Positions 4,420 through 23,628 of a DNA stretch of 64,000 nucleotides are shown one piece after another. A program made the position numbers and the translations under genes. Where the stretch lies: positions 83,773-147,772 of the forward strand of contig CBDHYJ010000078.1 of the NCBI GenBank assembly GCA_965275905.1, read 5' to 3'. Source of the stretch: Hyphomicrobiales bacterium. GTDB lineage: Bacteria; Pseudomonadota; Alphaproteobacteria; Rhizobiales; JAJFHC01. The notes under the pieces are model-generated. The model did not search any database. It was not told where the DNA came from and worked only from the letters and a program-made list of their open reading frames with translations. The first letter of the stretch is position 1; the number at the start of each line of letters is the position of its first letter.

Positions 4420-5203
4420 TCCAGACCGCCGCCGAACGCCTGTCTTCCGCCGGAACCGCCAACGCGCTGGAACTGCGCGGCGTGTCCCGCAATTTCGGTG
4501 CGCTCGCCGCGCTGACCGATGTCACGATGAGCGTGCGGCACGGGCGAGCGCCGTGCCGTGCTCGGGTCGAACGGTGCCGGCAAGACAACGCTGTTCAACT
4601 GCATCACCGGAGACTTCCCGCCGAGCTCGGGCACGATCCGCTTCTTCGGGGAAGACGTGACCACCCTGCCGCCGCACGAGCGTATCCGCAACGGCTTGCG
4701 GCGGACCTACCAGATCTCGCTTCTGTTCGGCGGGCTGACGGTGATCGACAACGTGTATCTGGCCTGCCGCGGTGTCTCGCGCGGCCGCTTCTCCCTGATC
4801 AGGCCGAGGCGTAGCGAGGCACTGATGCAGTCCGCGCTCGAACTGGTCGAAGCGGTGCACCTGACCGACGTGCGCGATCAGCCCGTCTCGGAACTCAGCC
4901 ACGGCCAGCAGCGGCAGCTCGAGATTGCGCTGGCCCTCGCCGGCGCGCCGCGGTTCATCCTGTTCGACGAGCCCGCGGCCGGACTGTCGCCGACCGAGCG
5001 GGCAGAGCTGATCGAGATCCTGACATCGCTGCCGGAGCATATCGGCTACATCATCATCGAACACGACATGGACGTGGCGCTGCAGGGTCGTCGAAAGCGT
5101 GACGATGATGCACAACGGCCGCATCTTCAAGGAAGGCCGCCCGGAGGAGATCGAGTCCGATCCGGAGGTGCAGGAACTCTACCTGGGAGGCGGCCATGAC
5201 TAG
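4416..5203 (+). CDS. ABC transporter ATP-binding protein (LivG-like), frameshifts near 4544 and 5083
   Basis: Walker [38 protein letters not shown]-terminal EVQELYLG ends at TAG 5201-5203 after reframing. Confidence 0.88.
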
Positions 5204-7428
5204 GTTTGACCGTCCCAGGAGCCCGCCCGCGCCGGTGCTGCAGGTCAGTGGTCTCAACGTCTACTACGGGCATTCCCATGCGCTGCAGGGCGTGGATCTG
5301 ACGCTTGATCACGGCGTTCTTTCCGTGGTCGGGCGCAACGGCATGGGCAAGACCACGCTGTGCATGGCCATCATGGGGCTGGTGCCCGGCATCGAGCGGT
5401 TCGATCCGGTTCAACGGCGAGGAACTGACAAACCTTTCTTCGTCGCAGATTGCCCAGTACGGCATCGGCTACGTGCCGCAGGGGCGCCGGTTGTGGCCGT
5501 CGCTCACCGTGCATGAGCATCTCCGGCTGGTCGCCGGAAACACGCGCGGCGCCTGGAGCATCGAACGCATCTACGACACTTTCCCGCGCCTGGCGGAACG
5601 GCGCAACAACGGCGGCGGGCAGCTTTCCGGCGGCGAACAGCAGATGCTGGCGATCTCGCGCGCGCTGCTGCTCAATCCGCAGTTGCTGGTCATGGATGAG
5701 CCGACCGAGGGGCTTGCCCCCGTCATTGTCAGCCAGGTCGAGGAGATGCTTCTGCATCTGGGCGACGAAAGTGACATTTCGGTGCTGGTGATCGAGCAGA
5801 ACATCGGTGTCGCCACGGAAATCTCCGAGCAGGTCGCCATCATGGTCAACGGCCGGATCAACCGGGTGATGGACGCCGGGCGGCTGGCCGCCGACAAGGA
5901 TCTGCAGCAGAGACTGCTGGGTGTTGGACGCCACGCGCACGATGACGACCTGGAGCTGCAGGCGCAGGCCGGTGCCGCGGGTGAGGCAGAGGACGTATCC
6001 GAAAGCCGCAAGGGGCCGGTCAGGATCTTCGTCTCCAATCCGACCATCCCGACGCGCTGGTCGAAGCCCGCGCCGCTCGCCCGGATTGAATCTGCGGCAC
6101 GCCTCGACTCCGGATCGGCGGCGGGAAGGACGGCTTCGGCCGGTCCGGCGCAGCATGTCGAATTGCGGCCGCTGTCGGCCGGTCGCGAGGACGTGGTCCT
6201 CGTTGCCGGCACGCTCGACACCAAGGGCGACGAGATCCGCTTCATCCGGGATATCCTCAAGGACGCAGGGATTCGCACCCGGCTGGTGGATCTTTCGACC
6301 ACCGGCAAACTGTCGAGTGCCGATATCCCGCCGCACCAGATCGCGGCCTATCACCGCCACGGGCCGAGCGCGGTCTTCACCGACGACCGGGGCAAGTCCG
6401 TGGCCGGCATGGCCGAGGCGTTCGAGGCCTGGATCAGCCGTCAGGGCGGCATAGCCGGCATTATTTCGGCCGGCGGGTCGGGCGGCACGGCCATGGCGAC
6501 GCCCGCCATGCGCGTGCTGCCTGTCGGCGTGCCGAAGATCATGATCTCGACGGTCGCCTCCAGCGATGTCAGCCGCTATGTCGGACCGGCGGATATCATG
6601 ATGATGCATTCGGTGGCCGACGTTCAGGGCCTGAACTCGATCACCCGCGAAGTCCTTGCGAACGGGGCCAATGCCATGGTTTCGATGGTCAAGGCCCGGC
6701 AGGAACGGCATCGCACGCGGGACACCGGGGCAGGGGATCTGCCGGCGATCGGGCTGACCATGTTCGGCGTCACCACTCCTTGCGTCCAGCAGATCACGCC
6801 CGCCCTCGAAAACGACTACGACTGCCTCGTGTTCCATGCCACCGGTGTCGGCGGACGCTCGATGGAGAAGCTGGTCGACAGTGGCCTGCTGACAGGCGTC
6901 ATCGACATCACCACCACGGAAGTCTGCGACCTTTTGATGGGCGGGGTTTTCGCGGCCACGGAAGACCGGTTCGGCGCGATGATCCGTGCGCAGATGCCCT
7001 ATGTCGGGGCTTGCGGGGCGCTCGACATGGTCAATTTCGGAGCGCCGGACACGGTGCCCGCGCATTATGCGGACCGTCTGTTCTACGAGCACAATCCCCA
7101 GGTCACGCTGATGCGCACGACAGCCGAGGAAAACGAGCGCATGGGCCGCTGGATTGGCGAGAAGCTGAACCAGATGGACGCGCCGGTCCGCTTCTTCCTG
7201 CCCGAAGGCGGCGTATCGCTGCTCGACGCGCCCGGTCAGGCGTTCCACGACCCGGCAGCCGATGCGGCGCTCTTTACAGCACTCGAGCAGACCGTGCGCC
7301 AGACGTCGAACCGGCAGCTTATCCGCCTGCCGCACAATGTGAACGATCAGGAGTTTTCCGATGCGGTCGTCAGGGCGTTTCTGTCCCTGCACGGCGGCCA
7401 GTCAACGCGCAGAAGTGCCAGGAGATAA
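5196..7428 (+). CDS. Fusion of LivF-like ABC ATPase and Tm-1-like (UPF0261) ATP-binding domain; one frameshift near 5385
   Basis: GRNGMGKTT, LSGGEQQML, MDEPTEGLAP, then in the same frame GTLDTKG, GGSGGT, PKIMISTVAS, TMFGVTTPCV, VFHATGVGG, GALDMVNFG, HNPQVTLMRT. Confidence 0.85.
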
Positions 7429-7431
7429 TGC

Positions 7432-8265
7432 ATGCCACGATTTGAACGCTCGACCCTTCTCGAAAAATACCGGGGCATGATTGCCCGGGGCGAGCCGATT
7501 ATCGGTGGCGGCGCGGGGACGGGGCTGTCCGCCAAGTGCGAGGAGGCCGGCGGCATCGACCTCATCGTGATCTACAATTCCGGGCGCTACCGAATGGCCG
7601 GGCGAGGCTCTCTGGCCGGCCTCATGCCCTATGGCGACGCCAACCAGATCGTGGTCGAGATGGCGAGCGAAGTGCTGCCCGTGGTGAGCAACACGCCTGT
7701 GCTCGCGGGCGTCAACGGGACCGATCCGTTCCGGCTGATGGACGTGTTTCTCGATGAACTGAAGGCGATCGGCTTCTCCGGCGTGCAGAACTTTCCGACG
7801 GTCGGACTGATCGACGGCACGTTCCGGGCCAATCTCGAAGAGACCGGCATGTCCTACGGCCTTGAGGTCGACATGATCGCGAAGGCTCACGAGAAGGACA
7901 TGCTGACCACGCCCTATGTGTTCAACGAGGACGATGCGACAGCCATGGCGAAGGCCGGCGCGGACATCATCGTCTGCCATCTGGGGTTGACTACGGGCGG
8001 GTCGATCGGGGCCGAGACGGCCCTCAAGCTGGAGGACTGCTCGGCCATGGTCGATGCCTGGGCCCAGGCAGCTCTCAATGTGAACGGGGATGCCATCGTG
8101 CTGGTGCACGGCGGGCCGGTTTCATCGCCTGAGGACGCGGACTACGTGCTCAGGAACACAAGCAACTGTCACGGGTTTTACGGTGCGTCTTCCATGGAGC
8201 GTTTGCCGACCGAGGTCGCGCTCACGGAACAGACGCGCAAATTCAAGCAGATCGGCGCGAGCTGA
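7432..8265 (+). CDS. TIM-barrel signal transduction / PEP-hydrolase-like family protein (homologous to the Tm-1 C-terminal domain)
   Basis: [45 protein letters not shown]. Confidence 0.9.
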
Positions 8266-8319: not shown

Positions 8320-11300
8320 ATGTCGGGTCAATTGATCGGTGAACTGATTCTCTGGCTGATCGTGGCGGTTATCGTCATCGCGATCATCTACTGGGTCATG
8401 AACTGGCTTTATCGCCGGTCCACCAAGGAGGTCTCGTTCGTACGGACCGGTTTCCTTGGCGAAAAGGTGGTGATCAATGGCGGCGCATTCGTGTGGCCGA
8501 TCGTCCACGATATCACGCCGGTGAACATGAACGTGCTGCCGATCGCGGTGACCCGCGACAGGGATGACGCACTGATCACACGTGACCGGATGCGTGTCGA
8601 CGTCGACGCGGAATTCTATGTGCGTGTCGCACCCACAAAGGACTCCGTGTCGGTCGCTGCGGCAACACTTGGCCGCCGGACCATGGAGCAGGAGCGGCTG
8701 CACGCGCTTCTGGTCGGCAAGTTCATCTCGGCACTCAGATCGGTTGCCGCGGAGATGGATCTGCAGGAGATGCACGAGCAGCGCGGCGATTATGTCATGC
8801 GGGTGCGGGCTGCCGCGCAGGAAGGGCTGGCCCAGAACGGTCTTGAGCTCGAATCCGTCGCCATCACCGATATCGACCAGACGGACCTTGAGTACTTCAA
8901 TCCTTCCAACCAGTTCGATGCCGTCGGTCTGACGCAACTGATCGAGGACATCGAGGCCAAGCGCAAGCTGCGCAACGACATCGAGCAGGACTCGATGATC
9001 AGGATCAGGGCACGAAACCTGGAAGCCGAGAAACAGTCTCTCGACATCGAGCGTGAAAGCGAGTCCGCTCGTCTTGAGCAGGAACGCGAAATCGAGTCGA
9101 ACCGCGCGGCCCAGCGGGCCGAGATCGCACGCCAGCGTGCCGAACGGGAGACGGAAGCCGAACAGGCGCAGATCACCGCACGTGAGGAAATCGAGAAGTC
9201 GCGGATTGCCAACGAGCACGCCATCAGTCAGGCGCGCATCGCGTCTGAACGGGAGATCCGTCAGAAGGAAATCGAACGCCAGCAGATCATCGATGCCGCC
9301 GAAATCGCGTCGCGTGAGCAGGTCGAGATGGCGCGGATTACGCAGGAGCGCTCGGTCACCGAGGCAAGGATCGCAAACGAGCAGGAGACGCAATCCAAGG
9401 ATATCGCCCGCCGCCGCGCCGTTGAGGAAGCGCAGATCGCGGCCAATGAGGCGACCGAGCGGGCACGCATTGCCCAGGAGAAGGCCGTTACCGAGGCCCG
9501 CATCACCAAGGACGAGGAAACCCAGCGCCGCGAAATCGAGGCGCGTGAGGAAACCGAGAAGGCGCGTATTGCGCAGGAGCGGGTGCTGACCGATGCCCGT
9601 ATCCACAACGAGGAAGAGACGCGGCGGCGCGAAATCGCCCGTAACCTCGCTGTCGAGGAAGCCGAGATCGCATCACGCGAAGCGACCGAGAAACTGCGCA
9701 TTGCCCAGGAGACCGTGGTCAACGAGGAACGCATAGCCTCGGACCGCAAGATCCGGGATATGGAGATCGAGCGCACGCGCGTGCTGGAAGAAGCTGAAAT
9801 CGCGGCTCAGCAGGCGACCGAAGCGGCCCGTATCGCGCGGGAGAAGAAGCTCGCCGCTGATCGTATTGCGTCCGAACAGAACACCAGGGAGCTCGAAATC
9901 GAGCGGCGCAAGATCGTGGAGGAAGCCACGATCACGGCCCAGGAAGCGATCGAGGCGACACGGATCGCCCAGGAAGAGCGGGTGCGCGGGCTGGAGATCG
10001 CCCGCAACCGTGCGGTCGACGAGTCCGAGATTGCAGCCCGTGAGGCCGTCGAGGCTGCACGCATCGCGCAGGAGAAGTCGCTCGCCGTCGAGCGCATCGA
10101 GAGCGAAGGCGCGACGAAGGAACGTCAGGTTGAACGCGACAAGGCGGTTCGGGAGGCGGAAATCGCCGCCCACGAGGCCACCGAAGCCGCACGCATCGCG
10201 CAGGAAAAGCGGATCGCGGCGGAACGCATTGCCTCGGAAGAGGAAACGCGCAAGCGCGAGATCGTCCGCAACCGCGAGGTCGATGCCGCCGATATCGCCA
10301 CGCAGGAGTTCATCGAGACGGCGCGGATCGAGCAGCGGGTGAAGGTCGACGCCGAGCGGATCGCCGCCGACGAGGCGACGACGCTTCGCGAATTCGTGGC
10401 GCGCGAGAGCACGGAAGCGGCCCGGATCGCACAGGAAAGAAACACCGAAGCCGAGCGCATTCTGGCCGACCAGGAAACCCGTTCGCGCGAGATCGAGCGC
10501 AACGAGGCGGTCGAGATGGCGGAGATCGGGTCGCGGCGCAGCGTCGACCAGACCCGGATCGAGCGCGAGAAGGAGACGAGTGTCGACCGGATCGGGCGGG
10601 ACGAGGAGGTGCGCAAGCTCGAGATCGCACGCAACGAAGCGCTCGATGCCGCGCAGATTGCCGCCGACAAGGCGATCGAGGCCGCCCGCATTTCGCGTCA
10701 GAAGACGATCGACGCGGAACGCATTCTGGCCGAACAGGAGACCAGAGGCCGGGAGATTGCCCGCGACCAGGTTGTCGAAAGCTCCGAAATCGCCAAGCGC
10801 GATGCCGTCGAGAAGGAACGGATCGCCATGGAGCTGCGGCTGGAGCAGGAACGTATCGATTCGTCCGAGACCCGCGAGATTGCCGATATCGGCCGCAAGA
10901 AGAAGGTCGAGGAGGCGGAAGAAGATCGCGTCATCGCGCTTGCAGGCAAACGCATCGAGCGCGCGGAATCCGATGCCCAGGTCAAGAAGGCCGATATCGA
11001 GGCCCAGCGCGATGTCGATACAGCCGACATTTCGCGCGAGCAGGTGCTCGATGCCGTGAAACTCGAACGCAAGCGTGCGCTCGAGCAACTCGAGGTGGCG
11101 AGGCTCCAGGCCCTGCGTGAGGCAGAGATCGCGTCGCGCGAGGAAATCGAGCGCGCCCAGATCGCATCCGAGCGCGGTCTGGACGAGGCCCGGATCACCC
11201 GCGAGCGCGACCGCCGCAAGCTCGAAGTCGAGCGCGAGCGTGAGGTCGAGTCGGCCGAGATGGAAAAGGCCATCGTGCTTTACCAGAAGTCGCTTGAGGA

Positions 11301-12000
11301 ATCGGCCGCGCAGGCTGAAGCCGATGCGGCTCGTGCCAAGGCCGCGGAGGCCGAGGAGCAGGTCAAGACCGTCCGCGAGAGCGAGGAGGCCAAGCGCCGC
11401 CGGTCCGTCGACGTGATCATGGCCGAGAAGGAAGCCGAGGCGAAGAAGATCGCCGCGGAAGCCGAGAAAGTGCGCGCCGCGGTCGAAGCCGAGGCCCAGC
11501 GTCTGTTGAACGAGGCCGAGAACGTCCTCACCGACGAGGCGCGCTACGCGCTGTTCCGCCGCAAGCTGCTGGAACACGTGGAAGGCATTGTCTCGGCGTC
11601 GGTCAAGCCGATGGAGAAGATCCAGGATATCCGGATCATGCAGCTCGACGGCATGAGCGGCGGCGGGGGCGGCGACCGCAAGAATGCGACCGACGAGGTC
11701 ATCGACTCCGCCCTGCGCTACCGCGTCCAGGCGCCGCTGGTCGACAGCCTGATGTCCGATCTCGGCATCGACGGCAGCAACATCTCCAAACTGGGCGGTC
11801 TGGTGCGGGAAGCACGCGACATGCAGTCCATCGCCGAGAAGGCCGAGAAACAGGCGTCTGCTGGTGACGGCGGCTCCGATAGCTCGGGCGACGGCGGTGG
11901 TTCGGGCGGCGGAGATGACGGCGGCGGATCCGGCGGCTCAGGCGGCTCGGGCAGTTCGCGGCGTTCGGGCGGCCGGCGCTCAACCAGATCCAAGAAGTAG
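8320..12000 (+). CDS. Giant SPFH/band-7 flotillin (YqiK-like), 1226 aa, with an expanded hendecad helical region and a Gly/Ser/Arg tail
   Basis: N-terminal TM helix; SPFH core (FVRTGFLGEKVV, LITRDRMRVDVDAEFYVRV, NGLELESVAITDIDQT, NQFDAVGLT); flotillin C-terminus (VKPMEKIQDIRIMQ, SALRYRVQAPLVD). Confidence 0.9.
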   Translation: MSGQLIGELILWLIVAVIVIAIIYWVMNWLYRRSTKEVSFVRTGFLGEKVVINGGAFVWPIVHDITPVNMNVLPIAVTRDRDDALITRDRMRVDVDAEFYVRVAPTKDSVSVAAATLGRRTMEQERLHALLVGKFISALRSVAAEMDLQEMHEQRGDYVMRVRAAAQEGLAQNGLELESVAITDIDQTDLEYFNPSNQFDAVGLTQLIEDIEAKRKLRNDIEQDSMIRIRARNLEAEKQSLDIERESESARLEQEREIESNRAAQRAEIARQRAERETEAEQAQITAREEIEKSRIANEHAISQARIASEREIRQKEIERQQIIDAAEIASREQVEMARITQERSVTEARIANEQETQSKDIARRRAVEEAQIAANEATERARIAQEKAVTEARITKDEETQRREIEAREETEKARIAQERVLTDARIHNEEETRRREIARNLAVEEAEIASREATEKLRIAQETVVNEERIASDRKIRDMEIERTRVLEEAEIAAQQATEAARIAREKKLAADRIASEQNTRELEIERRKIVEEATITAQEAIEATRIAQEERVRGLEIARNRAVDESEIAAREAVEAARIAQEKSLAVERIESEGATKERQVERDKAVREAEIAAHEATEAARIAQEKRIAAERIASEEETRKREIVRNREVDAADIATQEFIETARIEQRVKVDAERIAADEATTLREFVARESTEAARIAQERNTEAERILADQETRSREIERNEAVEMAEIGSRRSVDQTRIEREKETSVDRIGRDEEVRKLEIARNEALDAAQIAADKAIEAARISRQKTIDAERILAEQETRGREIARDQVVESSEIAKRDAVEKERIAMELRLEQERIDSSETREIADIGRKKKVEEAEEDRVIALAGKRIERAESDAQVKKADIEAQRDVDTADISREQVLDAVKLERKRALEQLEVARLQALREAEIASREEIERAQIASERGLDEARITRERDRRKLEVEREREVESAEMEKAIVLYQKSLEESAAQAEADAARAKAAEAEEQVKTVRESEEAKRRRSVDVIMAEKEAEAKKIAAEAEKVRAAVEAEAQRLLNEAENVLTDEARYALFRRKLLEHVEGIVSASVKPMEKIQDIRIMQLDGMSGGGGGDRKNATDEVIDSALRYRVQAPLVDSLMSDLGIDGSNISKLGGLVREARDMQSIAEKAEKQASAGDGGSDSSGDGGGSGGGDDGGGSGGSGGSGSSRRSGGRRSTRSKK
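9169..10917 (+). repeat. 53 tandem 11-aa (33-bp) coding repeats with a 44-aa super-period inside the flotillin gene
   Basis: Manual alignment from QITAREEIEKS to DIGRKKKVEEA; Ile at position 2 in 51 of 53 units (one Val, one Phe). Confidence 0.92.
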
Positions 12001-12012: not shown

Positions 12013-12450
12013 ATGGCGAGAGTCTTCACATCAAGCGTGATCGGCGCGCCCGCCGACAAGGTCTGGGCCCGGATCCGTGACTTCAACGGTCTGCCGAGCT
12101 GGCATCCGGCGATCCGGGAGAGCCAGATCGAGGGCGGCGAACCGTCGGACAAGGTCGGCTGTATCAGGGACTTCTACCTGCAGAACGGCGACCGGATCCG
12201 CGAGCAACTGCTGGGCCTGTCGGACTACGACATGTTCTGCACCTATTCGATCCTGGAAAGCCCGATGCCGCTCGAGAACTACGTGGCCACGCTGCGCTTG
12301 ACACCGATCACGGACGGCAACAGGACGTTCGCCGAGTGGACGGCGGAGTTCGACTGCGCGCCGGAAGAGGAATCCGGTCTCGTTTCCGGCATTGGTGAAA
12401 ATGTGTTCCAGGGCGGCTTCGACTCGCTCAAGCGGCACTTCGGAAACTGA
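12013..12450 (+). CDS. SRPBCC/START-fold (polyketide cyclase 2) protein, copy 1
   Basis: IGAPADKVWARIRDFNGLPSWHP, GCIRDF, YSILESPMPLENYVAT. Confidence 0.9.
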   Translation: MARVFTSSVIGAPADKVWARIRDFNGLPSWHPAIRESQIEGGEPSDKVGCIRDFYLQNGDRIREQLLGLSDYDMFCTYSILESPMPLENYVATLRLTPITDGNRTFAEWTAEFDCAPEEESGLVSGIGENVFQGGFDSLKRHFGN

Positions 12451-12459: not shown

Positions 12460-12903
12460 ATGGTGAAAGTGGTCAAGAGCACGATCCTCGACGCACCCAT
12501 CGATGAGGTGTGGGACGTGCTGCGTGACTTCAACGGTCACGACCACTGGCACCCGGCCGTTGCCGACAGCACTGTCGAGCGCGGCTCACCGTCGGACCGG
12601 GTGGGCTGCGTCAGGCGCTTTCACCTGCAGGACGGTTCGGAGCTGCGCGAGCAGCTGCTGACGTTGTCCGACATGGAAACGGCGTTCAGCTACTGCCTGC
12701 TCGATACACCGGTGCCGCTGTTCAACTACGTCGCTCATGTGCGGCTGATTCCGGTAACCGACGGCAACCGCACGTTCTGGCAGTGGGAGTCGCGCTTCGA
12801 CACGCCGAAGGGTCGCGAGAGCGAGCTTGAGCAACTGGTCGGAACGGACATCTACGAGGCGGGCTTCGAGGCCGTTCGCCAGCATATGGGCCTGGCGGCC
12901 TGA
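12460..12903 (+). CDS. SRPBCC/START-fold protein, copy 2 (paralogue of the preceding gene)
   Basis: LDAPIDEVWDVLRDFNGHDHWHP, GCVRRF, aligns colinearly with copy 1. Confidence 0.9.
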   Translation: MVKVVKSTILDAPIDEVWDVLRDFNGHDHWHPAVADSTVERGSPSDRVGCVRRFHLQDGSELREQLLTLSDMETAFSYCLLDTPVPLFNYVAHVRLIPVTDGNRTFWQWESRFDTPKGRESELEQLVGTDIYEAGFEAVRQHMGLAA

Positions 12904-13746: not shown

Positions 13747-14229
13747 ATGGCGCGTAAACCGATACAGTTCAGGCTCAACGGCTCGGAGAAGGCCGTGTTT
13801 GTCGAGGACGGCCAGAACCTGCTCGACACCGTGCGCCGCGAGGTCGGCGACTTCGCGCCGAAATACGGTTGCGGGCAGGGCACGTGCGGCTGCTGTACCG
13901 TACTGATCGACGGCGAACCTCATCTTTCCTGCCTGACCCTTGCCGAGACCTGCGAAGGCCGTGCCATCGAGACGACCAGCGCGCTCGCCGACGGCCCCGA
14001 CCTCCATCCCCTGCAGGCCGCATTTACGGAGCATTTCTCAGCACAATGCGGCTTCTGCACGCCCGGCATGCTGATGGCCGCCAAGGCTCTGCTCGACCGC
14101 AATCCGCAGCCGACACGCGAAGACGTGGTCGAGGCGATCTCCGGCAACATCTGCCGGTGCACCGGCTACGAGTCGATCATCAATGCCATTCTCGATGCCG
14201 CATCGCGGCGTAACGCGCGCAGCGCCTGA
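13747..14229 (+). CDS. Xanthine-oxidase-family molybdoenzyme, 2x[2Fe-2S] (CoxS-like) subunit
   Basis: GCGQGTCGCCTV, QCGFCTPGM, GNICRCTGY. Confidence 0.95.
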   Translation: MARKPIQFRLNGSEKAVFVEDGQNLLDTVRREVGDFAPKYGCGQGTCGCCTVLIDGEPHLSCLTLAETCEGRAIETTSALADGPDLHPLQAAFTEHFSAQCGFCTPGMLMAAKALLDRNPQPTREDVVEAISGNICRCTGYESIINAILDAASRRNARSA

Positions 14230-14241: not shown

Positions 14242-16011
14242 ATGCTCGAATTCAGAAAAGATCTTTTTGCCGATGAACGCGACGACGATCTGAACGAGAT
14301 CGGCCAGCCGACACAGCGCCAGGACATACTGGGTCATGTCACCGCCCGGTCCCGGTTCTTCGACGACCACGCGTTTGACGGCCTGCTGCACCTTAAGTGT
14401 GTGCGCAGCCCACACCACCATGCGCGCATCCGCTCGGTCGACTGTTCGCAGGCGGAAACGGCGCCCGGCGTTGTGCGGATCATCCGTCCCGGCGACGTCC
14501 CGGTCAATCTCAACACGCTCCTGAGCCTGATCGGCTTCGGCAGGGATGACGAGCCGGTGCTCGCGGTCGACAAGGTCCGCTACAAGGGCGAGCCGCTGGT
14601 CGCCATCATTGCGGAAAGCGAAATTGCGGCACGGGATGCCGTCCAGCTCGTCAGGGTCGACTACGAGGTCCTGCCGCACGTGCTCGAGGTCGAGGAGGCC
14701 CTGAAGCCCGGTGCGCCGACGGTCAACGATACCTATCCGGAGAACTACTTCGTCTACCACGAGCATTACGACCGCCAGAAGCTTCGCTACGGCGATGTCG
14801 AGCGGGGCTTTGCCTCGGCCGATCATGTGCTCGAGGAGCGCTACCAGATGTCGCCGATCGAGCAGGCGCCGACCGAAACGAACGGATGCATCGCCGCGCC
14901 GGAGAACAATGACCGGTTCGTCGTGCACACGTCCACGCAGGCGCTGTTCTTCTCGCTCGGGACGACCGCAAAGCTGCTCGATATGCCGTCGAACCAGTTG
15001 CATTTCATCGGTGGCACGGTCGGCGGCGGCTTTGGCGGCAAGGTCGACTCCCTGTGTGAGCCGCTTGCCGTGCTCGGGGCCAAATTCACCGGCCGGCCGG
15101 TGCGCTACGTGTTCGACCGGGAAGAGGAAATGCAGGTCGGCGCGCCGCGCGGCGCGGAGGTCTGGTACATCAAGGACGGGGTCATGAATGACGGGCGCAT
15201 CGTCGCCCGGCAGATCCGTGGATACTTCGATGCCGGCGCCTATACCCGGCTGTCGAGCTACGCGATCATCAAGTGCACCGCGCATCTGCCGGGGCCCTAC
15301 ACGATCCCCAACGTCAAGTCGGACGCGTTCTGCGTCTACACCAACCGGACGCCGGCAACCGCCATGCGCGGCTTCGGCATTACGGGCGTCGATTTCGCGC
15401 TCGAATGCCACATGGACAAGATGGCGCATCTGGTCGGCATGGATCCGATCGAGATGCGTATCCTCAATGCCTATCGCGACGGCGATATGAAGGCGCACCG
15501 GCGCGAGGCCAAGAACTGCGCGCTGATCGAGTGCTGCCAGGTGGCCGCGGAAAAGGCTGGCTGGACCATCCGCGACGAGTTCAGGCAGATGGCCTCGATG
15601 AGGGACGGCGGCGGGGACCGGGCGCTGATCCCGCAGACGGCGATGGACAACGAGGGACGTATCGGCGGTGGCGCCGCACCGTCGCCGGTCTCGACGCCGC
15701 AGCCCGCGCCACTGATCACGCCGGGCGTGCAGCCGCAGACCGTGACGGCACCTCCGCCGCAACCTCAACCGGCACCTCCGCCGGCGCAGGCGCAGCCACC
15801 GCAACCTGCCGCCCCGCCGCCGGCCCAACAGACCACGCAGCCGCCACAACCCGCGGCTCCGCCGCCGCAGCCGCATCCCCCGGTGCAGACACGGCCGGAA
15901 CCGCATAGCGAGCCGGCCGGTTCGGCACGGCCGTCGCCGTCGCCACGGCCCGGGTCGCAGCGCCATGGCGCGCACCGGTCATCTTCCATTTCAGGCATGA
16001 GGAGGCGCTGA
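14242..16011 (+). CDS. Molybdopterin-binding subunit, N-terminal half, with a ~110-aa Pro/Gln-rich C-terminal tail
   Basis: RSPHHHARI, KVRYKGEP, GGGFGGK, DAGAY, PYTIPN, AMRGFG, DPIEMR. Confidence 0.92.
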   Translation: MLEFRKDLFADERDDDLNEIGQPTQRQDILGHVTARSRFFDDHAFDGLLHLKCVRSPHHHARIRSVDCSQAETAPGVVRIIRPGDVPVNLNTLLSLIGFGRDDEPVLAVDKVRYKGEPLVAIIAESEIAARDAVQLVRVDYEVLPHVLEVEEALKPGAPTVNDTYPENYFVYHEHYDRQKLRYGDVERGFASADHVLEERYQMSPIEQAPTETNGCIAAPENNDRFVVHTSTQALFFSLGTTAKLLDMPSNQLHFIGGTVGGGFGGKVDSLCEPLAVLGAKFTGRPVRYVFDREEEMQVGAPRGAEVWYIKDGVMNDGRIVARQIRGYFDAGAYTRLSSYAIIKCTAHLPGPYTIPNVKSDAFCVYTNRTPATAMRGFGITGVDFALECHMDKMAHLVGMDPIEMRILNAYRDGDMKAHRREAKNCALIECCQVAAEKAGWTIRDEFRQMASMRDGGGDRALIPQTAMDNEGRIGGGAAPSPVSTPQPAPLITPGVQPQTVTAPPPQPQPAPPPAQAQPPQPAAPPPAQQTTQPPQPAAPPPQPHPPVQTRPEPHSEPAGSARPSPSPRPGSQRHGAHRSSSISGMRRR

Positions 16012-16013
16012 CG

Positions 16014-17039
16014 ATGGCTCTGCATCGCGGACGCGGCGTTGCCGCAATCAACTATCCGATCGGCATGAACCTCGGCGGGGACCCGAGCCAGGCGCTCGTG
16101 CACTCCAATCCGGACGGCAAGTTCACGGTTGCCCTGTCGTCGATCGATCTCGGACAGGGCATGAAGTCGGTGACGCGGCAGATCGCGGCTGAAACCCTCG
16201 GAATTCCCGTCACGGACGTTTATGTCGACACTGCCGACAGCGATACCGGCCCGCACTGCATGGGCAGCTTTGCCTCGCGCGGCACCCACCGGGTCGGCAA
16301 CGCGGTCATTGCGGCGGCCAAGGAAGCCCGCGGCGTGCTGCTGGAGGCGGCGGCCGAGGAACTGGAGGTCAATGCGGACGATCTCGAGACCGACGGCAAG
16401 GGCAACATCCATGTCAAGGGCGCCCCGCAGCGCTCGATCACCACGACCGAAGTGGCGATCGCCGCTCAGTTCAAGCAGGGCAAGACCATTTCAGGGCGCG
16501 GCATTTTCCTGATCCCCATGTCGGACGTCGATCCCGAGACCGGCGAGATGACCCCGGTGTCCTGTTATGCCCATGCCTGCCTCGTTGTCGACGTGGAGGT
16601 CGATGACGAGACGGGCGAGGTCGAGGTGCTGGAGATCAACAGCGCCTACGAAGTCGGCCGTGCGCTCAATCCGAAGCTGGTCGAACAGCAGCTTGTCGGC
16701 GGGGCCTGGATGGGCCTGAGCCACGCGCTCTACGAGACCACCGAACCGTATTATCCGGACAGGAGCCACGGGCCGGTCGACTTCAACGAGTATCTGATGC
16801 CGGGTCCGGGCGATGTCGCAACCCACAATATTGCCGTGCTTGAGCGGCCGGCGCCTGACGGGCCGTATGGCGGCAAGGGGCCGGGCGAGATGTGCGCCAA
16901 TCCGGTCCTGCCCGCCGTCACCAATGCGGTGTTCAACGCGGTCGGCGTGCGCATAGACGAACTGCCGATCACGCCGGAAAAGGTGCTGCGCGGCATCAAG
17001 GCCCAGGGCGGAGCGGCCCCGGCGGGACGGACGGGCTAG
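16014..17039 (+). CDS. Molybdopterin-binding subunit, C-terminal half
   Basis: DLGQG, GSFASRGT, VEVDDETGEV, GRALNP, GKGPGE (catalytic Glu position), LPITPE; own AGGAGG RBS. Confidence 0.92.
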   Translation: MALHRGRGVAAINYPIGMNLGGDPSQALVHSNPDGKFTVALSSIDLGQGMKSVTRQIAAETLGIPVTDVYVDTADSDTGPHCMGSFASRGTHRVGNAVIAAAKEARGVLLEAAAEELEVNADDLETDGKGNIHVKGAPQRSITTTEVAIAAQFKQGKTISGRGIFLIPMSDVDPETGEMTPVSCYAHACLVVDVEVDDETGEVEVLEINSAYEVGRALNPKLVEQQLVGGAWMGLSHALYETTEPYYPDRSHGPVDFNEYLMPGPGDVATHNIAVLERPAPDGPYGGKGPGEMCANPVLPAVTNAVFNAVGVRIDELPITPEKVLRGIKAQGGAAPAGRTG

Positions 17040-17051
17040 GAGGGTGTCGGC

Positions 17052-17933
17052 GTGGCGGTAAGGCGTGAAATAGTCGGCATTGACGGGCCGGACACGCTTG
17101 AGAGCGCTCTGCGCGCCGCCCAATACCTGGCGGATGGCGGCCTGTCCACCGCGGCCTATCTGGCGCTTGCTCTTGGCAAGCCGCTGCTGCTTGAAGGCGC
17201 GCCCGGTGTCGGCAAGACCGAGGCCGCCAAGGCGATTTCCTCCGTTCTCGGACGCCAGTTGATCCGGCTGCAGTGTTACGAGGGCATCGATGCCGCCCAT
17301 GCGCTCTACGAATGGAACTATCCGCGCCAGATGCTGGCGATCCGGCAGGCCGGCGAGGAATCGGTCGACATCTACCGCGACGAATTCCTGATCGAGCGGC
17401 CGATGCTTGCCGCGCTTCAGGCGCCGCGCAACACCGTCCTGCTGATCGACGAGATCGACCGCTCCGATCACGAGTTCGAGGCCTTCCTCCTGGAATTCCT
17501 GTCCGACTTCCAGATCTCGATCCCCGAACGCGGGACGGTCCGGGCGCACGAGCATCCGGTGGTGGTCCTTACGTCGAACCGGACCCGCGAACTGCACGAA
17601 GCGCTCAGGCGACGCTGTGTCTATCACTGGATCGCGTATCCGGACGCCGAACGCGAGGCGCAGATCGTCATGATGCGCGCCTCCAGCGTTGCCGAAGCGA
17701 CAGCGCAGGCCGTGGTCGCCGCCGTCGCCCGGATGCGGCAGGAGCCGCTCACGAAGCCGCCGGGCGTGGCCGAGACCGTCGAGTGGGCGGAGGCCGCGAC
17801 TCTGCTCAACAGTCAGGGCGCGCCGTGGCCGGAGGCCTTCCGGCGGGCCATCGGCGTGGTGCTCAAGGACGAGGAAGACCTCGCCTATCTGGCACCGCGT
17901 CTCGACTCTCTCATAGCAGGAGAGGCGGCATGA
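17052..17933 (+). CDS. MoxR-family AAA+ ATPase (CoxD-like)
   Basis: LLEGAPGVGKT, RLQCYEG, LLIDEIDR, LTSNRTRELHEALRRRC. Confidence 0.93.
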   Translation: MAVRREIVGIDGPDTLESALRAAQYLADGGLSTAAYLALALGKPLLLEGAPGVGKTEAAKAISSVLGRQLIRLQCYEGIDAAHALYEWNYPRQMLAIRQAGEESVDIYRDEFLIERPMLAALQAPRNTVLLIDEIDRSDHEFEAFLLEFLSDFQISIPERGTVRAHEHPVVVLTSNRTRELHEALRRRCVYHWIAYPDAEREAQIVMMRASSVAEATAQAVVAAVARMRQEPLTKPPGVAETVEWAEAATLLNSQGAPWPEAFRRAIGVVLKDEEDLAYLAPRLDSLIAGEAA

Positions 17934-19051
17934 CGGACCTGCGGCAGATACCCGATGCGGCGAAGCCGTTTGTCGAGTTTCCCGCGGTTCTGCGCGGGCA
18001 CGGATTTTCGGTCGCGCCCGAGCAGACAATGAATTTCATCACGGCAATCGAACTGCTGGGGCCGAGAGGCATGAGCGATATCGCCAATGCGGCTCATGCG
18101 ACGCTTGCGCCAGCGCCTGAGCGGCGCGACGAGTTCGACGCGCTGTTCCGCATGTTCTTCATGGGCCAGACGGTCGCCGCGCCGATCGTCAGCGACGATG
18201 ACGAAGAAGAGCAGATGCGGGTGCAGGAGGAGGGCGGCACGTTCGAGCCGCTCGACTCCGACGATATCAACGAAACCGGCGAAGCGGCCACCACGACCGA
18301 GGCACTCTCGGTGCGGGAATTCCCGGCCGGGGATCGCGATGAGGTGCTGCGCCGGTTCGCCCGCGCGGTGCCGGACCGTATCCCAGTGCGAAAGGGACAC
18401 AGGCGCGCCGTGGTGCGCCAGGGCCCCGGCTTCGATCTGCGGGCGGTGCTGCGTCAGGCGGTGCGCAATGACGGCGAGATCATCGCCCTGCCGCGCCTCA
18501 AACGGAAGATGCGCCAGCGCGCGATCCTGCTGCTGATCGACGTGTCCGGTTCGATGAAGGCGCAGACGGAAGATCATATGCGCTTCGCTCATGTCCTTGC
18601 GCAAGCCGCCGACAGGATCGAGGTCTTCACGCTCGGTACACGGCTGACGCGGATCACGCCCGCCCTGCGCTACAGGAACGCGGATCATGCGCTGGCCGCC
18701 GCGTCCTCGACCGTCTCCGACTGGGACGGCGGCACACGCATCGGCGATGCCCTGCAGGCGTTTCTCTCGATCCCGCGTTTCGCCGGGTTCGCGCGCGGCG
18801 CCCTGACGCTGATCCTTTCCGACGGGCTGGAGCGTGGCGAACATGACGCCATGCTTGATGCGGTGGCACGGCTCTCGCGCCGGGCCTGGCGCATAAGCTG
18901 GCTGTCGCCGCTCGCCACCGGCCCCGGCTTCGAACCGCAAACGGCCGCGCTCAAGGCGATCAGGCCCCTCATTGACGACCTTGCCGACTGCAGCTCCCTC
19001 GACCGTCTCTGCACGCATGTGCTCGAGCTTTCCCGGGAGCAGATGCCATGA
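17930..19051 (+). CDS. VWA-domain CoxE-like protein
   Basis: MIDAS motif DVSGS, FTLGTRLTRIT, WDGGTRIG, ILSDGLERG, WLSPL; ATGA overlap with the MoxR gene. Confidence 0.92.
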   Translation: MTDLRQIPDAAKPFVEFPAVLRGHGFSVAPEQTMNFITAIELLGPRGMSDIANAAHATLAPAPERRDEFDALFRMFFMGQTVAAPIVSDDDEEEQMRVQEEGGTFEPLDSDDINETGEAATTTEALSVREFPAGDRDEVLRRFARAVPDRIPVRKGHRRAVVRQGPGFDLRAVLRQAVRNDGEIIALPRLKRKMRQRAILLLIDVSGSMKAQTEDHMRFAHVLAQAADRIEVFTLGTRLTRITPALRYRNADHALAAASSTVSDWDGGTRIGDALQAFLSIPRFAGFARGALTLILSDGLERGEHDAMLDAVARLSRRAWRISWLSPLATGPGFEPQTAALKAIRPLIDDLADCSSLDRLCTHVLELSREQMP

Positions 19052-19926
19052 TCGTCGACGCCCATCACCATGTCTGGCGCCAGGAAGACTTGCCGTGGCT
19101 GATGGGGCCGATGCAGCCGCGGATATTTGGGGAATACGAGGCGATCAGGCGGGACTACCTCATGCCCGAGTTCCTCGACGATATTGCGGGAACCGGGGTG
19201 ACCAAGTCGGTTTACGTGCAGGCGAACTGGGCACCCGACCGCTTCGAGGACGAAGTGGAGTGGGTTCAGCACGTCGCCGACGAGACGGGCTGGCCGCACG
19301 GCATCGTGGGCTATGCTGACTTCCTCGCCGACGATGTGCGACCGCAGCTTGACCGTCTGGCCGAGTACCCTCTGATGCGCGGCGTGCGCATGCAGCTTCA
19401 CTGGCACGAGAACGAGATGTACCGGTTCGCCGGCGATCCTGATTTGTGCACGAACCCGAAGCTTCAGGAGAACGTTGCGCATCTCGCGGATTATGACTGG
19501 AGCTTCGATCTTCAGGTGTTCACCGGTCAGATGGATGGTGCTGCCGAACTGGCGGCGGCCTGTCCGAAGGTGAAGTTTATTCTGCAGCACGCCGGTATGC
19601 CGGAGGACCAGGACGACGTGCCGCGCCGGTCCTGGTACGCGGCGATCCGGCGTCTCGCCAAGAAGAAGAACGTCTACTGCAAGCTCTCGGGCTTCGGCAC
19701 GTTCATCCACTGGAACAATCCGGACCGCGTCGGGCTTCTTGTCCAGGAGGGAGTGAGGATCTTCGGGGCCGAACGCTGCCTCTACGGCTCGAACTTCCCG
19801 ATCGAGAAACTCTGGACGACCTATCCGCAACTGTTCGCCGCCTTCGAAGCGGGGGCAGGCGACCTGCCTCCCGACGACCGCCGGGCAATCTTTCACGACA
19901 CCGCGACGCGGGTCTACCGACTCTAG
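19048..19926 (+). CDS. Amidohydrolase_2-family protein (lactonase-like)
   Basis: VDAHHHVW, VYVQA, RGVR, ILQHAGMP, CKLSG, YGSNFP. Confidence 0.9.
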   Translation: MIVDAHHHVWRQEDLPWLMGPMQPRIFGEYEAIRRDYLMPEFLDDIAGTGVTKSVYVQANWAPDRFEDEVEWVQHVADETGWPHGIVGYADFLADDVRPQLDRLAEYPLMRGVRMQLHWHENEMYRFAGDPDLCTNPKLQENVAHLADYDWSFDLQVFTGQMDGAAELAAACPKVKFILQHAGMPEDQDDVPRRSWYAAIRRLAKKKNVYCKLSGFGTFIHWNNPDRVGLLVQEGVRIFGAERCLYGSNFPIEKLWTTYPQLFAAFEAGAGDLPPDDRRAIFHDTATRVYRL

Positions 19927-19977: not shown

Positions 19978-20826
19978 ATGGCGCTCGAAATCAAGATACT
20001 CGACTACGGGGACATCGAGCTGGAAACGAGCTTTCTCGTGCTCGGCCACGAGTGCGGCCGCATCCGGCGGGTGCCGGTCTATGGCTATCTGATCCTGGGC
20101 GGGAAGTACCCGGTCCTGGTCGATACCGGCTACCGCGACAACGCGATCATGGAATCGCTCGGCATGCGCGGGCTGCAATACCACGAGAACATGATCGAGA
20201 ACCAGTTGGCCAAGCACGGACTCAAGCTGGGCGATATCCGCTACATCCTGCACACGCACCTGCATATCGACCACGCGGGCAAGGACGACCTGTTCCCGAT
20301 GAACACGACGGTCGTGGTGAACCGGCGCGAGCTCGAATGCTCCGTGTCCGGTCTCATGCACCCGCAATACCCGCAGCCGGACATCAAGCACCTGATCGAC
20401 CGTCTGCACACCCAGGACGCGCTGCGCTTCCTCGATCTCGAGATCACCGGCACGGAAGAAATCATTCCGGGCGTGTGGTGCGAAGCGGCCAATGCCCACA
20501 CGGAAGGGTCGATGAACGTGGTGGTCGAGACCGCCGACGGTCTCGCCAATATCTGCGGCGACGTGATCTACAACTTCAACGACCAGATCGTGAACCAGGT
20601 GCGCCAGACCCAGTTCATGGAGCCGCAGGTGACGGGCAACCACGCGGGCTCCAAGCGGTCTGAGAAGGGCGCGATCAAGAAGCTGCTCCACAATTACCAG
20701 TTCCTGCTGCCGATCCACGACAAACCGGCGAAGATCGAGGAACAGCAGATCGTCGGGCGGCTCGAGGCTCAGGTTCCGGGACCGATCGTGGAGTCGCTGC
20801 CGAAGCGCGACTGGTTCCCGGTCTGA
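19978..20826 (+). CDS. Metallo-beta-lactamase-fold lactonase (AHL-lactonase/pyridoxolactonase-like)
   Basis: LVDTG, THLHIDH (HxHxDH), HTEGS, CGD, PIHD. Confidence 0.88.
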   Translation: MALEIKILDYGDIELETSFLVLGHECGRIRRVPVYGYLILGGKYPVLVDTGYRDNAIMESLGMRGLQYHENMIENQLAKHGLKLGDIRYILHTHLHIDHAGKDDLFPMNTTVVVNRRELECSVSGLMHPQYPQPDIKHLIDRLHTQDALRFLDLEITGTEEIIPGVWCEAANAHTEGSMNVVVETADGLANICGDVIYNFNDQIVNQVRQTQFMEPQVTGNHAGSKRSEKGAIKKLLHNYQFLLPIHDKPAKIEEQQIVGRLEAQVPGPIVESLPKRDWFPV

Positions 20827-20851
20827 CGCCTGCCTGGGGAGGACAAGGACG

Positions 20852-22446
20852 ATGACGCACGAAGCCCTGCGCCCGGAATTCAACGACCTGATCGACCAGT
20901 ATGCGCCTGTCGGCCAGCTCGCCACGGGGTTCGAGTTCACCGAAGGGCCGATCTGGCATCCCGTGGATCAGTTCCTCCTGTTCTCGGACATGCCGGGCGA
21001 CGTGCGGCGGCGCTGGGACCGGCACGGCGTGCGCGAAGTCATGCGGCCGTCGAACAAGTGCAACGGCATGACCTACGACGCGCCGACCTCAACCTCATCG
21101 TCTGCGAGCACTCGACGTCGTCGCTGATCCGGGAACGCCGGACGGGCGGCGCGAGGTTCTGGCCTCGCACTTCGAGGGCCGGGAACTGAACAGCCCGAAC
21201 GACGTCTGCGTGCGCTCGGACGGATCGATCTATTTCTCCGATCCATGGTACGGGCGCATGCCTGGCTTCGGCGTGGAGCGGCCCCGGGAGCTGGGCTTCC
21301 AGGGCGTCTACCGCGTCCGGCCCGGCACGGTCGGGCAGGAGCCGGAGCTCGTCGTCGACCGCATGCTGTTCGATCAGCCGAACGGTCTGTGTTTCTCGCC
21401 GGACGAGTCCATCCTCTACATCAACGACACGACCAACGCCCTGATCCGGGCCTTCGATGTCAATCCGGACGGCACGCTCAAGAACGGGCGGCTGTTCGCC
21501 AGCGGCATCAAGTCGGACCTGCTGCCGGGCGTGCCCGACGGCATGAAGTGCGATGCGCTCGGCAATGTCTGGGTCACGGCGCCGGGCGGCGTCTGGGTCT
21601 ACGCGCCGAGCGGCACGCTGATCGGCAAGGTGCGCGTGCCCGAACTGGTCGCCAACCTGCACTGGGGCGGCGAGGACTGGCGCACGCTCTACATGTGCTG
21701 CGACCCATTCCGTCTACACCGTGACGACAAAGGTCGGGCCACGGAACGAACCTTTCATGCGCACGCGCGGCGGGCCTGAAGCCGGGACTGTTTCGGCAGC
21801 GCCGCCCCCGGAGGCGCCCGCTGCTTCTCCCTCAAGCGGGGGCCTCCGGCTAGATCCGGGACGATGCGCGCTGATCATCCAGGACATGCAGAACGACGTG
21901 GTCATGGAAGGCGGCGCCTTTGCGGAGTCCGGATCGCCGGCGCACTGCAAGCAGCAGAACAATATCGAGCATTTGCGGCGGCTGGCCGACGTGTGCCGGT
22001 CCAAGGGCGTCATGGTCATCCATGTCTGGTTCGTGGTCGAACCCGGCGCGCCGGGCGTGACTTTGAATGCGCCGCTGTTCGAGGGGCTGCGGGATGCCAA
22101 TGCACTGGTGCGCGGTACCTGGGGCGTGGCGGCGGTGACAGGCCTGGAGCCGCGGCCCGGCGATCACGTGGTCACAAAGATGCGCATGAGCGCCTTTGAA
22201 GGCAGCACTCTCGAAACCGTGCTCAAGAGCGGCGGGCGGGACACGATCATCAGCACGGGGGCGTGGACCAACATGTCGGTCGAGCACACGGCCCGCACAG
22301 GCGCCGACAAGGGCTACAAGGTTGTCGTGCCGGAAGACTGCTGCTCGACCATGAATGCCGACTGGCACAATGCGTCGATCAATTTCGCCATGCAGAACGT
22401 CGCCACCGTGACGTCCACGAACGAGCTCATCGCCGCGTTCGGATGA
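20852..22446 (+). CDS. SMP-30/gluconolactonase fused to an isochorismatase-like domain; indels near 21080, 21137 and 21699
   Basis: FTEGPIW, FSD, LNSPND, YFSDP, PNGLCFSPDE, PDGMKCD; reframed C-terminus runs through a Pro/Ala linker into ALIIQDMQND...KMRMSAF...GAWTNMSVEHTAR. Confidence 0.8.
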
Positions 22447-22549
22447 CGCGTGAGCCCGCCGGAATGCGCGCTCAATGCCGGTTGGACTCGACTCAGTGCG
22501 TCAAGTACGCTCGAAATTCCATCGACTCCACTCACGAGGGGAGAGCCAC

Positions 22550-23191
22550 ATGATTATCGGTGTGTTGAATCAGAAGGGTGGCGTTGGCAAGACGACGGTC
22601 AGCATCAATCTGGCCGGGTACTTTGCCGATCAGGGGTACAAGACCCTGCTGGTCGATGCGGACCCGCAGGGCAGCGCGCAGAACTGGTCGATCGTGCGCG
22701 AAGCGGAACCGAAGTTTCCGGTCATCGGCATGGCCAAGCCGACCCTGCACAGGGACCTTCCTGCTGTTGCGGGCGACTACGACATCACGGTCATCGACGG
22801 GGCGCCGCGCGTGAACGATCTCGGCCGTGCCGCGATCCTTGCGAGCGATCTCGTGCTGATCCCGGTCCAGCCGTCGCCGTTCGATGTCTGGGCGACCGAC
22901 GACACGGTCCGGCTGATCCGCGAGGCGCAGCAGTACAAGGAAGGCATCGACGCGGTGTTCGCCATCAACCGCAAGATCGTCAACACCGCGATCGGACGTG
23001 ATGTGGCCGATGCTTTTGCGGAGCAGCCCTTCGAAGTGCTGCCCGCCACGCTGTGCCAGCGCGTGATCTATGCGGAAAGCGCGGCCCAGGGGCTGACCGT
23101 GCTCGAAGCAGCGCCCGCCAGTCTTGCAGCGCTTGAAATCGCCTCGCTCGGCCGTTCGCTCGTTCAGGAGCAGGAAAGCCAGGCGGCATGA
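22550..23191 (+). CDS. parA: Short ParA/ParF-type Walker-A ATPase (no N-terminal HTH)
   Basis: NQKGGVGKTT, LVDADPQGS, VIDGAP, LIPVQPSPFD, QRVIYAESAAQG. Confidence 0.92.
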   Translation: MIIGVLNQKGGVGKTTVSINLAGYFADQGYKTLLVDADPQGSAQNWSIVREAEPKFPVIGMAKPTLHRDLPAVAGDYDITVIDGAPRVNDLGRAAILASDLVLIPVQPSPFDVWATDDTVRLIREAQQYKEGIDAVFAINRKIVNTAIGRDVADAFAEQPFEVLPATLCQRVIYAESAAQGLTVLEAAPASLAALEIASLGRSLVQEQESQAA

Positions 23192-23628
23192 ACAAGAAGA
23201 TCTCGTTCAAGCGGCCCGCCAAGCCCGCCAGTCCGGAAGCGGACGACTGGGTCAAGGCCGGCGGGGACGATGACGAGAACGGGGCGCCGCCGAAAAAGCC
23301 GGCGGCCGCGAAGCCTGCAGCGCGCAAGCGCAAGGCGGCGGCCCCTAAGCCGAAGGAGAAAACGGAGCCGGCCGCAAGCCCCGCGCCGGCAGCCCGGGCT
23401 CCAACACCCTCATCGATGACTGCAGCCACCGTTCCGAGCGAGGTCAGGTGGCTCGACCGGACGCTCGACAGTGTCGACCGGCAGCTCGAGACCATTTCAG
23501 CGCGGGTCGTGGCGCGCCTCGGCCAGTCAGGCAAATCCGATGCGGATCTTATGGCCGAGATCGGCCGCAAGGCCGACCGGACGATCAAGCGGCTCGAAGA
23601 CCTGAAAAAGTCGCTGCGCAGGAGCTAG
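23188..23628 (+). CDS. Putative ParA partner/adaptor: basic N-terminal peptide, K/A/P-rich disordered region, C-terminal helical segment
   Basis: ATGA overlap with parA; MNKKISFKRP...ADDWV N-terminus; no recognisable ParB or RHH domain. Confidence 0.75.
   Translation: MNKKISFKRPAKPASPEADDWVKAGGDDDENGAPPKKPAAAKPAARKRKAAAPKPKEKTEPAASPAPAARAPTPSSMTAATVPSEVRWLDRTLDSVDRQLETISARVVARLGQSGKSDADLMAEIGRKADRTIKRLEDLKKSLRRS

Follow-up and report, generated by a model that had tools for sequence, protein, structure and literature searches.

A 64,000-nucleotide stretch of the genome of a Hyphomicrobiales bacterium (assembly GCA_965275905.1, contig CBDHYJ010000078.1, positions 83,773 to 147,772; hereafter the window) contains a real, uncharacterised alphaproteobacterial import-and-breakdown operon that includes an unusually long flotillin. 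We give roughly even odds (a probability of about 0.5) to the following reading. The flotillin, which is dedicated to the operon, probably assembles into a membrane-attached wall of unusual height, whose subunits would lie next to one another in the manner of the solved flotillin basket. This wall would gather a branched-chain-type ABC importer, a kinase-like domain that is fused to the importer, and a pair of SRPBCC proteins that may act as carriers. A molybdenum (Mo) hydroxylase is likely docked nearby through its tail, and a ParA ATPase with its partner, as an optional addition, likely positions protein cargo of the cluster. The importer would take up a small, probably cyclic solute; the kinase-like domain may phosphorylate the solute or a product; the Mo enzyme would hydroxylate; lactonase-type and cysteine hydrolases would open and strip the ring; and the SRPBCC proteins may shuttle a hydrophobic substrate or a quinone. 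That the flotillin is a scaffold for a pathway is well supported genetically. All coordinates below are those of the window, and all operon genes are on the forward strand. The genome of the window (G000) is 86% complete; G001 is a complete genome from the same genus.

The flotillin gene (8320..12000) encodes a YqiK-type protein of 1226 amino acids (aa) with a membrane segment at its N terminus, which is its single hydrophobic segment, followed by an SPFH domain (Band_7 at residues 46-194), a long stalk (8917..11589), a Flot cap (Flot at residues 1035-1150), and a G/S-rich tail. A first-pass annotation, made from the sequence alone, had described a membrane-anchored SPFH protein with a very long helical repeat, and each of these elements is there. 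The stalk of about 890 residues is predicted to be helical, residues 200-1090 are free of proline, and the net charge of the stalk is -47. The autocorrelation of the protein peaks solely at multiples of 11 and is strongest at 44, so the stalk has an 11-residue (hendecad) repeat and a 44-residue super-repeat. On a hendecad wheel, one position is almost always isoleucine (92%); at 164-229 degrees from it runs another seam, of hydrophobic or small residues, with small and charged faces in between. Such a two-seam wheel would fit wall helices that lie side by side better than a closed bundle, in agreement with the helical wall that the annotation had envisaged. If the stalk is one helix, then it would be about 133 nm long.

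The AlphaFold model of the flotillin monomer contains a membrane helix, the SPFH domain, and four long helices, and its best fold matches are the flotillin cages 9BQ2 and 9L3G. A report on these structures (PMC11260169) describes the flotillin basket as having 44 subunits, a height of 22 nm, and a single-layer, right-handed helical wall, and gives 44-189 aa for the wall helices of described SPFH proteins; the stalk in the window is almost five times longer. The flotillin-1/2 basket and the HflK/C cage resemble our protein in their SPFH domain, long charged wall helix, and Flot cap, and right-handed helices that run side by side would suit a hendecad repeat. In contrast to those systems, the protein described here has a stalk of about 890 aa that varies in 11-residue steps, and it is a single gene inside a catabolic operon.

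As a measure of stalk length we used the spacing of two conserved anchors (the core), which could be obtained for 70 of 80 homologous proteins; the other ten were cut, shifted, or missing an anchor. The core is 501-952 aa long, and its length is 6 modulo 11 in 62 proteins and 3 modulo 11 in the other 8. A sister clade has a core of 413 aa, also 6 modulo 11, in 8 of 9 proteins. If the subunits pack side by side, then added hendecads would lengthen the wall and leave its register unchanged. For most bacterial SPFH proteins, according to one account (PMC12005517), neither the clients nor the function is known. The operon names candidate clients for one of them, and cores of 413-952 aa are a natural length series for how the length of the wall sets the size of an SPFH assembly. 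In literature searches that left most subscription journals outside, we found no paper that links hendecads with flotillin, none on flotillin together with SRPBCC proteins and xanthine dehydrogenase, none on flotillin in an operon of the molybdenum hydroxylase/xanthine dehydrogenase family in Bradyrhizobium, and none on flotillin with ParA, positioning, and microcompartments. Two other long flotillins, of 730 and 894 aa, lie outside this system (loci L231, on contig C85 of genome G045, and L232, in genome G049); one has a 44-residue repeat and is near an outer-membrane efflux protein and an ABC exporter, and the other has a 29-residue repeat.

The flotillin is tied to a specific set of genes. 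A scan of GTDB species gave at least 441 related stretches among at least 587 pattern matches, and our locus counts refer to the best 80 of these. The gene order around these 80 flotillins is fixed. Within 10-kb flanks, we found the TIM-barrel gene at 78 loci, the first SRPBCC gene at 75, the gene for the FAD subunit of the Mo hydroxylase at 71, both halves of its Mo subunit at 65, and MoxR and VWA genes at 64; most of the misses fall at the ends of contigs or flanks. For the converse, the second half of the Mo subunit and the N terminus of the flotillin served as queries against 401 genomes of the order. Using cut-offs at gaps in identity (76% for the Mo enzyme and 71% for the flotillin) that were chosen after the rankings were seen, orthologues of the Mo enzyme are present in 73 genomes, those of the flotillin in 75, and both in 71, although related genomes are not independent. 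The six genomes with just one of the two are fragmented assemblies (320-840 contigs). Genomes with both are spread over many families, and carriers of the cluster include the genera Bradyrhizobium, Bosea, and Jannaschia. The proposal that the flotillin is tied to a catabolic molybdoenzyme pathway is thus upheld by the gene order and by the 71 shared genomes.

The tie to the Mo enzyme does not extend to a sister clade, in which 13 genomes have a 58-64% identical flotillin, 13 have a 66-73% identical Mo half, and nine have both, on separate contigs. The 9 of 13 flotillin loci that we examined all encode the importer, the kinase-like fusion, and both SRPBCC proteins, and five of them encode the TIM barrel; no Mo genes lie within 20 kb of the flotillin at any of the nine. 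At the 8 of 13 Mo loci that we examined, the first Mo half is 454-458 aa long and tail-less in every case, and two of these loci have an SRPBCC gene of their own. What stays with the flotillin throughout is thus the importer with its kinase-like domain, along with the two SRPBCC proteins, and a constant link of the flotillin to the Mo enzyme is not supported. The proline-rich tail of the Mo enzyme comes in with the fused, longer-stalk operon.

The Mo hydroxylase is of the xanthine-dehydrogenase type and is complete by family scans. It comprises an FAD subunit (12923..13744), a 2x[2Fe-2S] subunit (13747..14229), and both MoCo-binding domains, with the Mo subunit split into a first, NdhL-like half (14242..16011) and a second half (16014..17039). 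It reaches no NCBIfam equivalog cut-off, so we do not give it a specific name. The best solved match of the first half is nicotinate dehydrogenase (3HRD, E = 8.6e-61). The nicotinate dehydrogenase of Eubacterium barkeri (NdhFSLM) has the same split of its large subunit, but its solved chain of 425 aa has no tail of this kind. Here, the first half ends in a tail of 148 aa, 38 of them proline (15565..16008), which confirms the long tail that the annotation had noticed.

In the fused operons these tails are proline-rich and 85-176 aa long, and in 0 of 59 cases is the tail fused to the second half. The tail ends with R-F-S-S-x-x-G-x-R-R-R in 55 of 62 proteins and with R-R/K-R in 60 of 62, and the codons for R-F-S-S vary freely at synonymous sites. 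In the simplest reading, the tail would be a tether that ends in a short linear motif for docking. Its length is not correlated with that of the flotillin (rho = 0.17, p = 0.31, n = 39). We also considered whether the tail might form a MinD-like amphipathic membrane helix, which is ruled out by its hydrophobic moment (0.21, versus 0.43 in shuffles). The linker of the importer-kinase fusion (5900-6190) has a conserved block, with consensus Y-x-S-N-P-x-x-P-T-R-W, amid variable stretches; judging from its sequence, this block is a second candidate docking motif. The Mo genes are followed by a MoxR AAA+ ATPase and a CoxE-type VWA protein (17052..19051, identified by family scan), as first annotated. 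These are likely the maturation pair of the Mo enzyme, and paralogous MoxR/VWA pairs follow other Mo enzymes of G000 on contigs C27 and C35.

The importer is encoded by livH, livM, and livG (2253..5199, from family scans) and by a fusion (5196..7428) of the LivF ATPase, the linker, and the kinase-like domain (UPF0261/Tm-1). Next is a TIM-barrel protein (PF09370, Mll9387-like; 7432..8265). The closest known systems for the UPF0261 domain are MarK (9MPY; PMC12624787) and tomato Tm-1. In an alignment with MarK, our domain has the same residues at the D-T-K motif of the ATP site, at His219 of the substrate site, and at His304. It differs in that it is fused to an ABC ATPase and followed by the TIM barrel, and its sequence is nearer to Tm-1 than to MarK. 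The texts consulted gave no support for an equation of AcvAB/HpeHI with a UPF0261 and TIM-barrel pair, which is not used here.

The two SRPBCC proteins (12013..12450 and 12460..12903; 145 and 147 aa, 48% identical to each other) have no hydrophobic segment, and their Pfam family is Polyketide_cyc2 rather than CoxG. As described in a preprint (10.1101/2024.01.09.574806), CoxG is an SRPBCC quinone carrier that occurs with enzymes of the xanthine-oxidase family. The CoxG of CO dehydrogenase has the same fold and lies beside such an enzyme; in contrast, the operon has two SRPBCC copies, from another Pfam subfamily, and we did not find a CoxG-type C-terminal membrane helix in either.

The annotation had also noted several hydrolases, and these are present: an amidohydrolase-2 family protein (19048..19926), a lactonase-like protein with a metallo-beta-lactamase fold (19978..20826), and an SMP-30/gluconolactonase domain that is fused to an isochorismatase-family hydrolase (20852..22446). 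The pathway genes include three lactonase-type folds and one cysteine hydrolase, along with optional genes for aldehyde dehydrogenase, FAH, and SDR proteins. This gene set suggests a pathway that hydroxylates a cyclic solute and opens its ring.

At the end of the operon is a plasmid-derived ParA (22550..23191) with a partner (23188..23628) that had been described as unlike ParB. Both descriptions hold. The ParA passes NF041546 (266 bits, versus a cut-off of 180), its best matches in the PDB are ParF, and it has the ParF-type features: short length, a deviant Walker A motif, and the signature lysine. Its nearest relatives are ParAs of small alphaproteobacterial plasmids, which lie in parA-partner-rep cassettes. 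The partner consists of a ParG-like, charged N-terminal tail, a Pro/Ala/Lys linker, and a C-terminal domain that looks helical from its sequence pattern. Library scans give no family for the partner. At E up to 1 it matches no ribbon-helix-helix (RHH) family, whereas each of the three comparison partners does. It belongs to a small undescribed family with a conserved C-terminal block, and its N-tail shares a K-K-I-x-x-K-x-P...A-D-x-W pattern with plasmid partners. The pair looks like a plasmid partition pair whose partner lost its DNA-binding domain and kept a conserved new C-terminal domain. Plasmid pairs of the ParF/ParG type (4DZZ and 5U1G; parA-parG-rep of pMRAD05 and pMJ700743b) have a ParA that is 67-75% identical, the same 4-bp gene overlap, and the same N-tail pattern; they differ in that our pair is chromosomal in G001 (on a 5.58-Mb contig), has no adjoining rep gene, and has a partner without an RHH match. 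Between the window and G001, parA has 40 synonymous and 3 non-synonymous codon differences, which implies purifying selection.

The partner family is present in just 3 of the 401 genomes of the order: G000, G001, and G186, which belongs to another family. In each of these, the pair directly follows the last hydrolase gene, and in G186 it is on the same strand, in a genome that also has the flotillin and Mo genes. G186 overturned our suspicion that the pair was an accident of one genus, and a tree of the hydrolase does not place G186 and this genus as sisters. The partner is missing from all 80 of the other genomes with the cluster, a search of 400 class-level genomes found none beyond G000, and a search of the protein atlas gave no usable match. 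(Protein P0010 from Actinoplanes was dropped as a relative because the match is likely due to low complexity.) A scan of metagenomes with parA gave one locus, of 1052 bp. The pair is thus not a standard part of the cluster, and positioning would be optional at best. The earlier idea of ParA-based positioning survives in part: a plasmid-derived pair is linked to the cluster in two families.

The pair had been likened to the carboxysome positioning system McdAB, for which PMC7182216 describes a ParA with a small polar partner that has a charged N terminus, a linker, and a helical C-terminal part, and, for type 1, a proposed origin from a plasmid pair that came to position cargo. The specific likeness fails on two hallmarks of McdB, as our partner has no tryptophan in its last four residues (tryptophan is only at positions 21 and 88) and no glutamine-rich region (1.4% glutamine). 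Also unlike McdAB, no shell genes were found, and few copies of the cluster carry the pair. Our pair adds a second apparent example of plasmid partition genes that were turned into a non-DNA adaptor.

Some clusters are flanked by a different ParA. A ParA lies just downstream at 10 of 60 loci: the one in G001, and nine of an orphan type that are convergent and without a partner. Genome G006 has an orphan ParA at the 5' end of its cluster, so the orphan flanks the cluster in 10 genomes, mostly those with long flotillins. From the density of Walker A motifs in the genomes, about 0.3 such loci are expected versus the 10 found, with the caveat that kin are not independent. The clusters with orphan ParAs do not form one clade (p-AU = 0.0004). 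In a quick ParA tree, the cluster-adjacent orphans are mixed with distant ones. Against a dedicated role, the orphan is found in 7 genomes without a long flotillin, and of the 17 genomes that have both the orphan and the cluster, 10 have the two far apart. The median stalk is 848 aa in clusters flanked by ParA (n = 10) and 639 aa in the others (n = 40), with p = 0.003 after five close kin are collapsed; this comparison is post hoc, involves few lineages, has no phylogenetic correction, and leaves out G006 (core of 688 aa). Genomes G049, G075, and G088 are exceptions with long stalks. At loci L182 and L184, in G073, where the orphan is adjacent to the cluster, and in G075, where it is not, the orphan ParA follows the same open reading frame (ORF), which looks like a thiamine enzyme from its sequence.

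Several observations weigh against our preferred reading. The model of the flotillin monomer is weak (mean pLDDT of 60, pTM of 0.27) and its helix is broken in three places. The sister clade keeps the flotillin and the Mo enzyme apart, and 4 of 13 genomes with one of them lack the other. The phenylalanine of the tail motif is replaced in this genus, and the last three arginines of the tail overlap the ribosome-binding site of the next gene. MarK's His348 is not conserved in the UPF0261 domain. The nearest matches of the SRPBCC model are uncharacterised proteins and plant PYL receptors, with CoxG not among the matches listed. Finally, a single origin of the clusters with the ParA pair is not rejected (p-AU = 0.108), so its linkage to the cluster may be one event that was carried along.

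One alternative is an ordinary microdomain scaffold, which we regard as possible but rather doubtful: the flotillin would do no more than cluster the importer in the membrane, the repeat would be a tolerant spacer, the enzymes would be free in the cytoplasm, and both types of ParA would be neighbours that were carried along. In its favour, the flotillin stays with the importer where the Mo enzyme lies elsewhere, the stalk varies about twofold in length, 50 of 60 downstream flanks have no ParA, orphans occur without a long flotillin or far from the cluster, and the window's ParA resembles plasmid ParAs (74.5% identity over 184 aa) as much as it does its counterpart in G186 (73% over 213 aa). 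Against it, the strict 11-residue register and the two-seam wheel suggest that packing is constrained, and the Mo tail and motif arise along with the fused operon. In the ParA partner, the DNA-binding domain is gone but a new C-terminal domain is conserved, and the orphan-flanked clusters are not one clade and exceed the expected number.

The other alternative of some weight goes further than our preferred wall-type scaffold. In a true compartment, a closed, capped SPFH tube of about 100-130 nm would enclose the cytoplasmic face of the importer along with the enzymes, which would be loaded by the tail motif, with ParA spacing the tubes where they are largest. SPFH cages can enclose clients, as PMC11260169 reports for HflK/C, which holds FtsH; the estimated stalk length of 133 nm, the longer stalks of ParA-flanked clusters, and the type 1 McdAB precedent would also fit. 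Furthermore, the annotation had seen no shell genes in the window, and none were found in G000 as a whole, which at 86% completeness has no match to bacterial microcompartment (BMC) shell proteins (PF00936; the control matched 2 of 14) or to encapsulin (PF04454; the control matched 3 of 14; other encapsulin families were not searched). Nevertheless, we judge a true compartment to be decidedly unlikely, as the free terminal motif is on just one enzyme of the cluster (in the consensus view), the link between stalk length and ParA has the limits and exceptions described above, and the sister clade shows that this family of Mo enzymes can do without the tail or the operon. The annotation's cage or scaffold is retained as a likely membrane-attached structure, on the strength of its coupling to the pathway, the fold matches to flotillin cages, and the two-seam repeat; nothing indicates a closed shell or encapsulated enzymes. 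It is similarly unlikely that the operon represents a new class of compartment, in which a membrane-capped flotillin tube of about 100-130 nm, tunable in 11-residue steps, would stand over its own importer with a tail-loaded molybdoenzyme, and ParA would have been recruited repeatedly, once with a new family of adaptor, to position the largest versions. If the enzymes were held inside, this would be a type of shell distinct from BMCs and encapsulins.

An electron-transfer stalk is very improbable; here the flotillin would be a conduit like that of Huc, and the two SRPBCC proteins would carry quinone in the manner of CoxG and so link the respiratory chain with a soluble Mo enzyme: the CoxG precedent, the anchorless SRPBCC proteins directly after the flotillin, and the SRPBCC genes at two sister Mo loci would fit, but the SRPBCC proteins belong to another Pfam subfamily, the flotillin and SRPBCC module exists without an adjacent Mo enzyme, and the stalk is highly charged.

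The operon had been described as a tightly packed, co-oriented run, and the ORF map and family scans confirm every named part, on the forward strand. The gaps between intact genes from the LivF-UPF0261 fusion through the lactonase-isochorismatase fusion are -4 to 54 bp, and parA is set off from the preceding gene by 103 bp. However, the unit does not start at 5196, as had been proposed, but further upstream. It includes livHMG; an AraC-family regulator (1241..2074, from a family scan, with its start placed by the 277-aa orthologue in G001), which is present at 60 of 80 loci; and the 3' part of an aldehyde dehydrogenase gene (50..1111; PF00171; 478 aa in G001), an optional member whose start lies before the window and which is present within the 10-kb flank at 9 of 80 loci. 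The gene for the importer's binding protein lies outside the window, at 80921-82174 of contig C78. Scans of the cluster for promoters and terminators did no better than chance. A second copy of the binding protein, 75% identical to the cluster's, is at 5520-6776 of contig C9 of G000; beside it are an SDR-like gene and a further transporter of the branched-chain type, and it may help to trace the substrate.

In the window, livH, livM, livG, and livF contain indels (with one frameshift near 5389 in the LivF-UPF0261 fusion, which is 743 aa long in G001), as does the lactonase-isochorismatase fusion (three indels; 530 aa in G001). All of these genes are intact in G001, and the three lactonase indels are also missing from an independent contig from sequencing run X3, so the indels are likely assembly errors. 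In G006, two copies of the cluster are seen on a single contig (C3:4484-7471 and 2481649-2484642), near both ends and with identical match scores, which is possibly an overlap in the assembly.

Directly after the ParA partner is a 249-aa ORF of low GC content (23776-24525; 0.52) without a family match, which is absent at that site in G001 and skipped by the X3 contig and thus is a variable insertion. Beyond it are an ordinary gene pair for a bacterial alpha-2-macroglobulin and PBP1C (24672-32305, reverse strand) and, at 32357-33139 on the forward strand, an ORF that resembles RTX acyltransferases of the HlyC family; no RTX gene was recognised among the window ORFs scanned.

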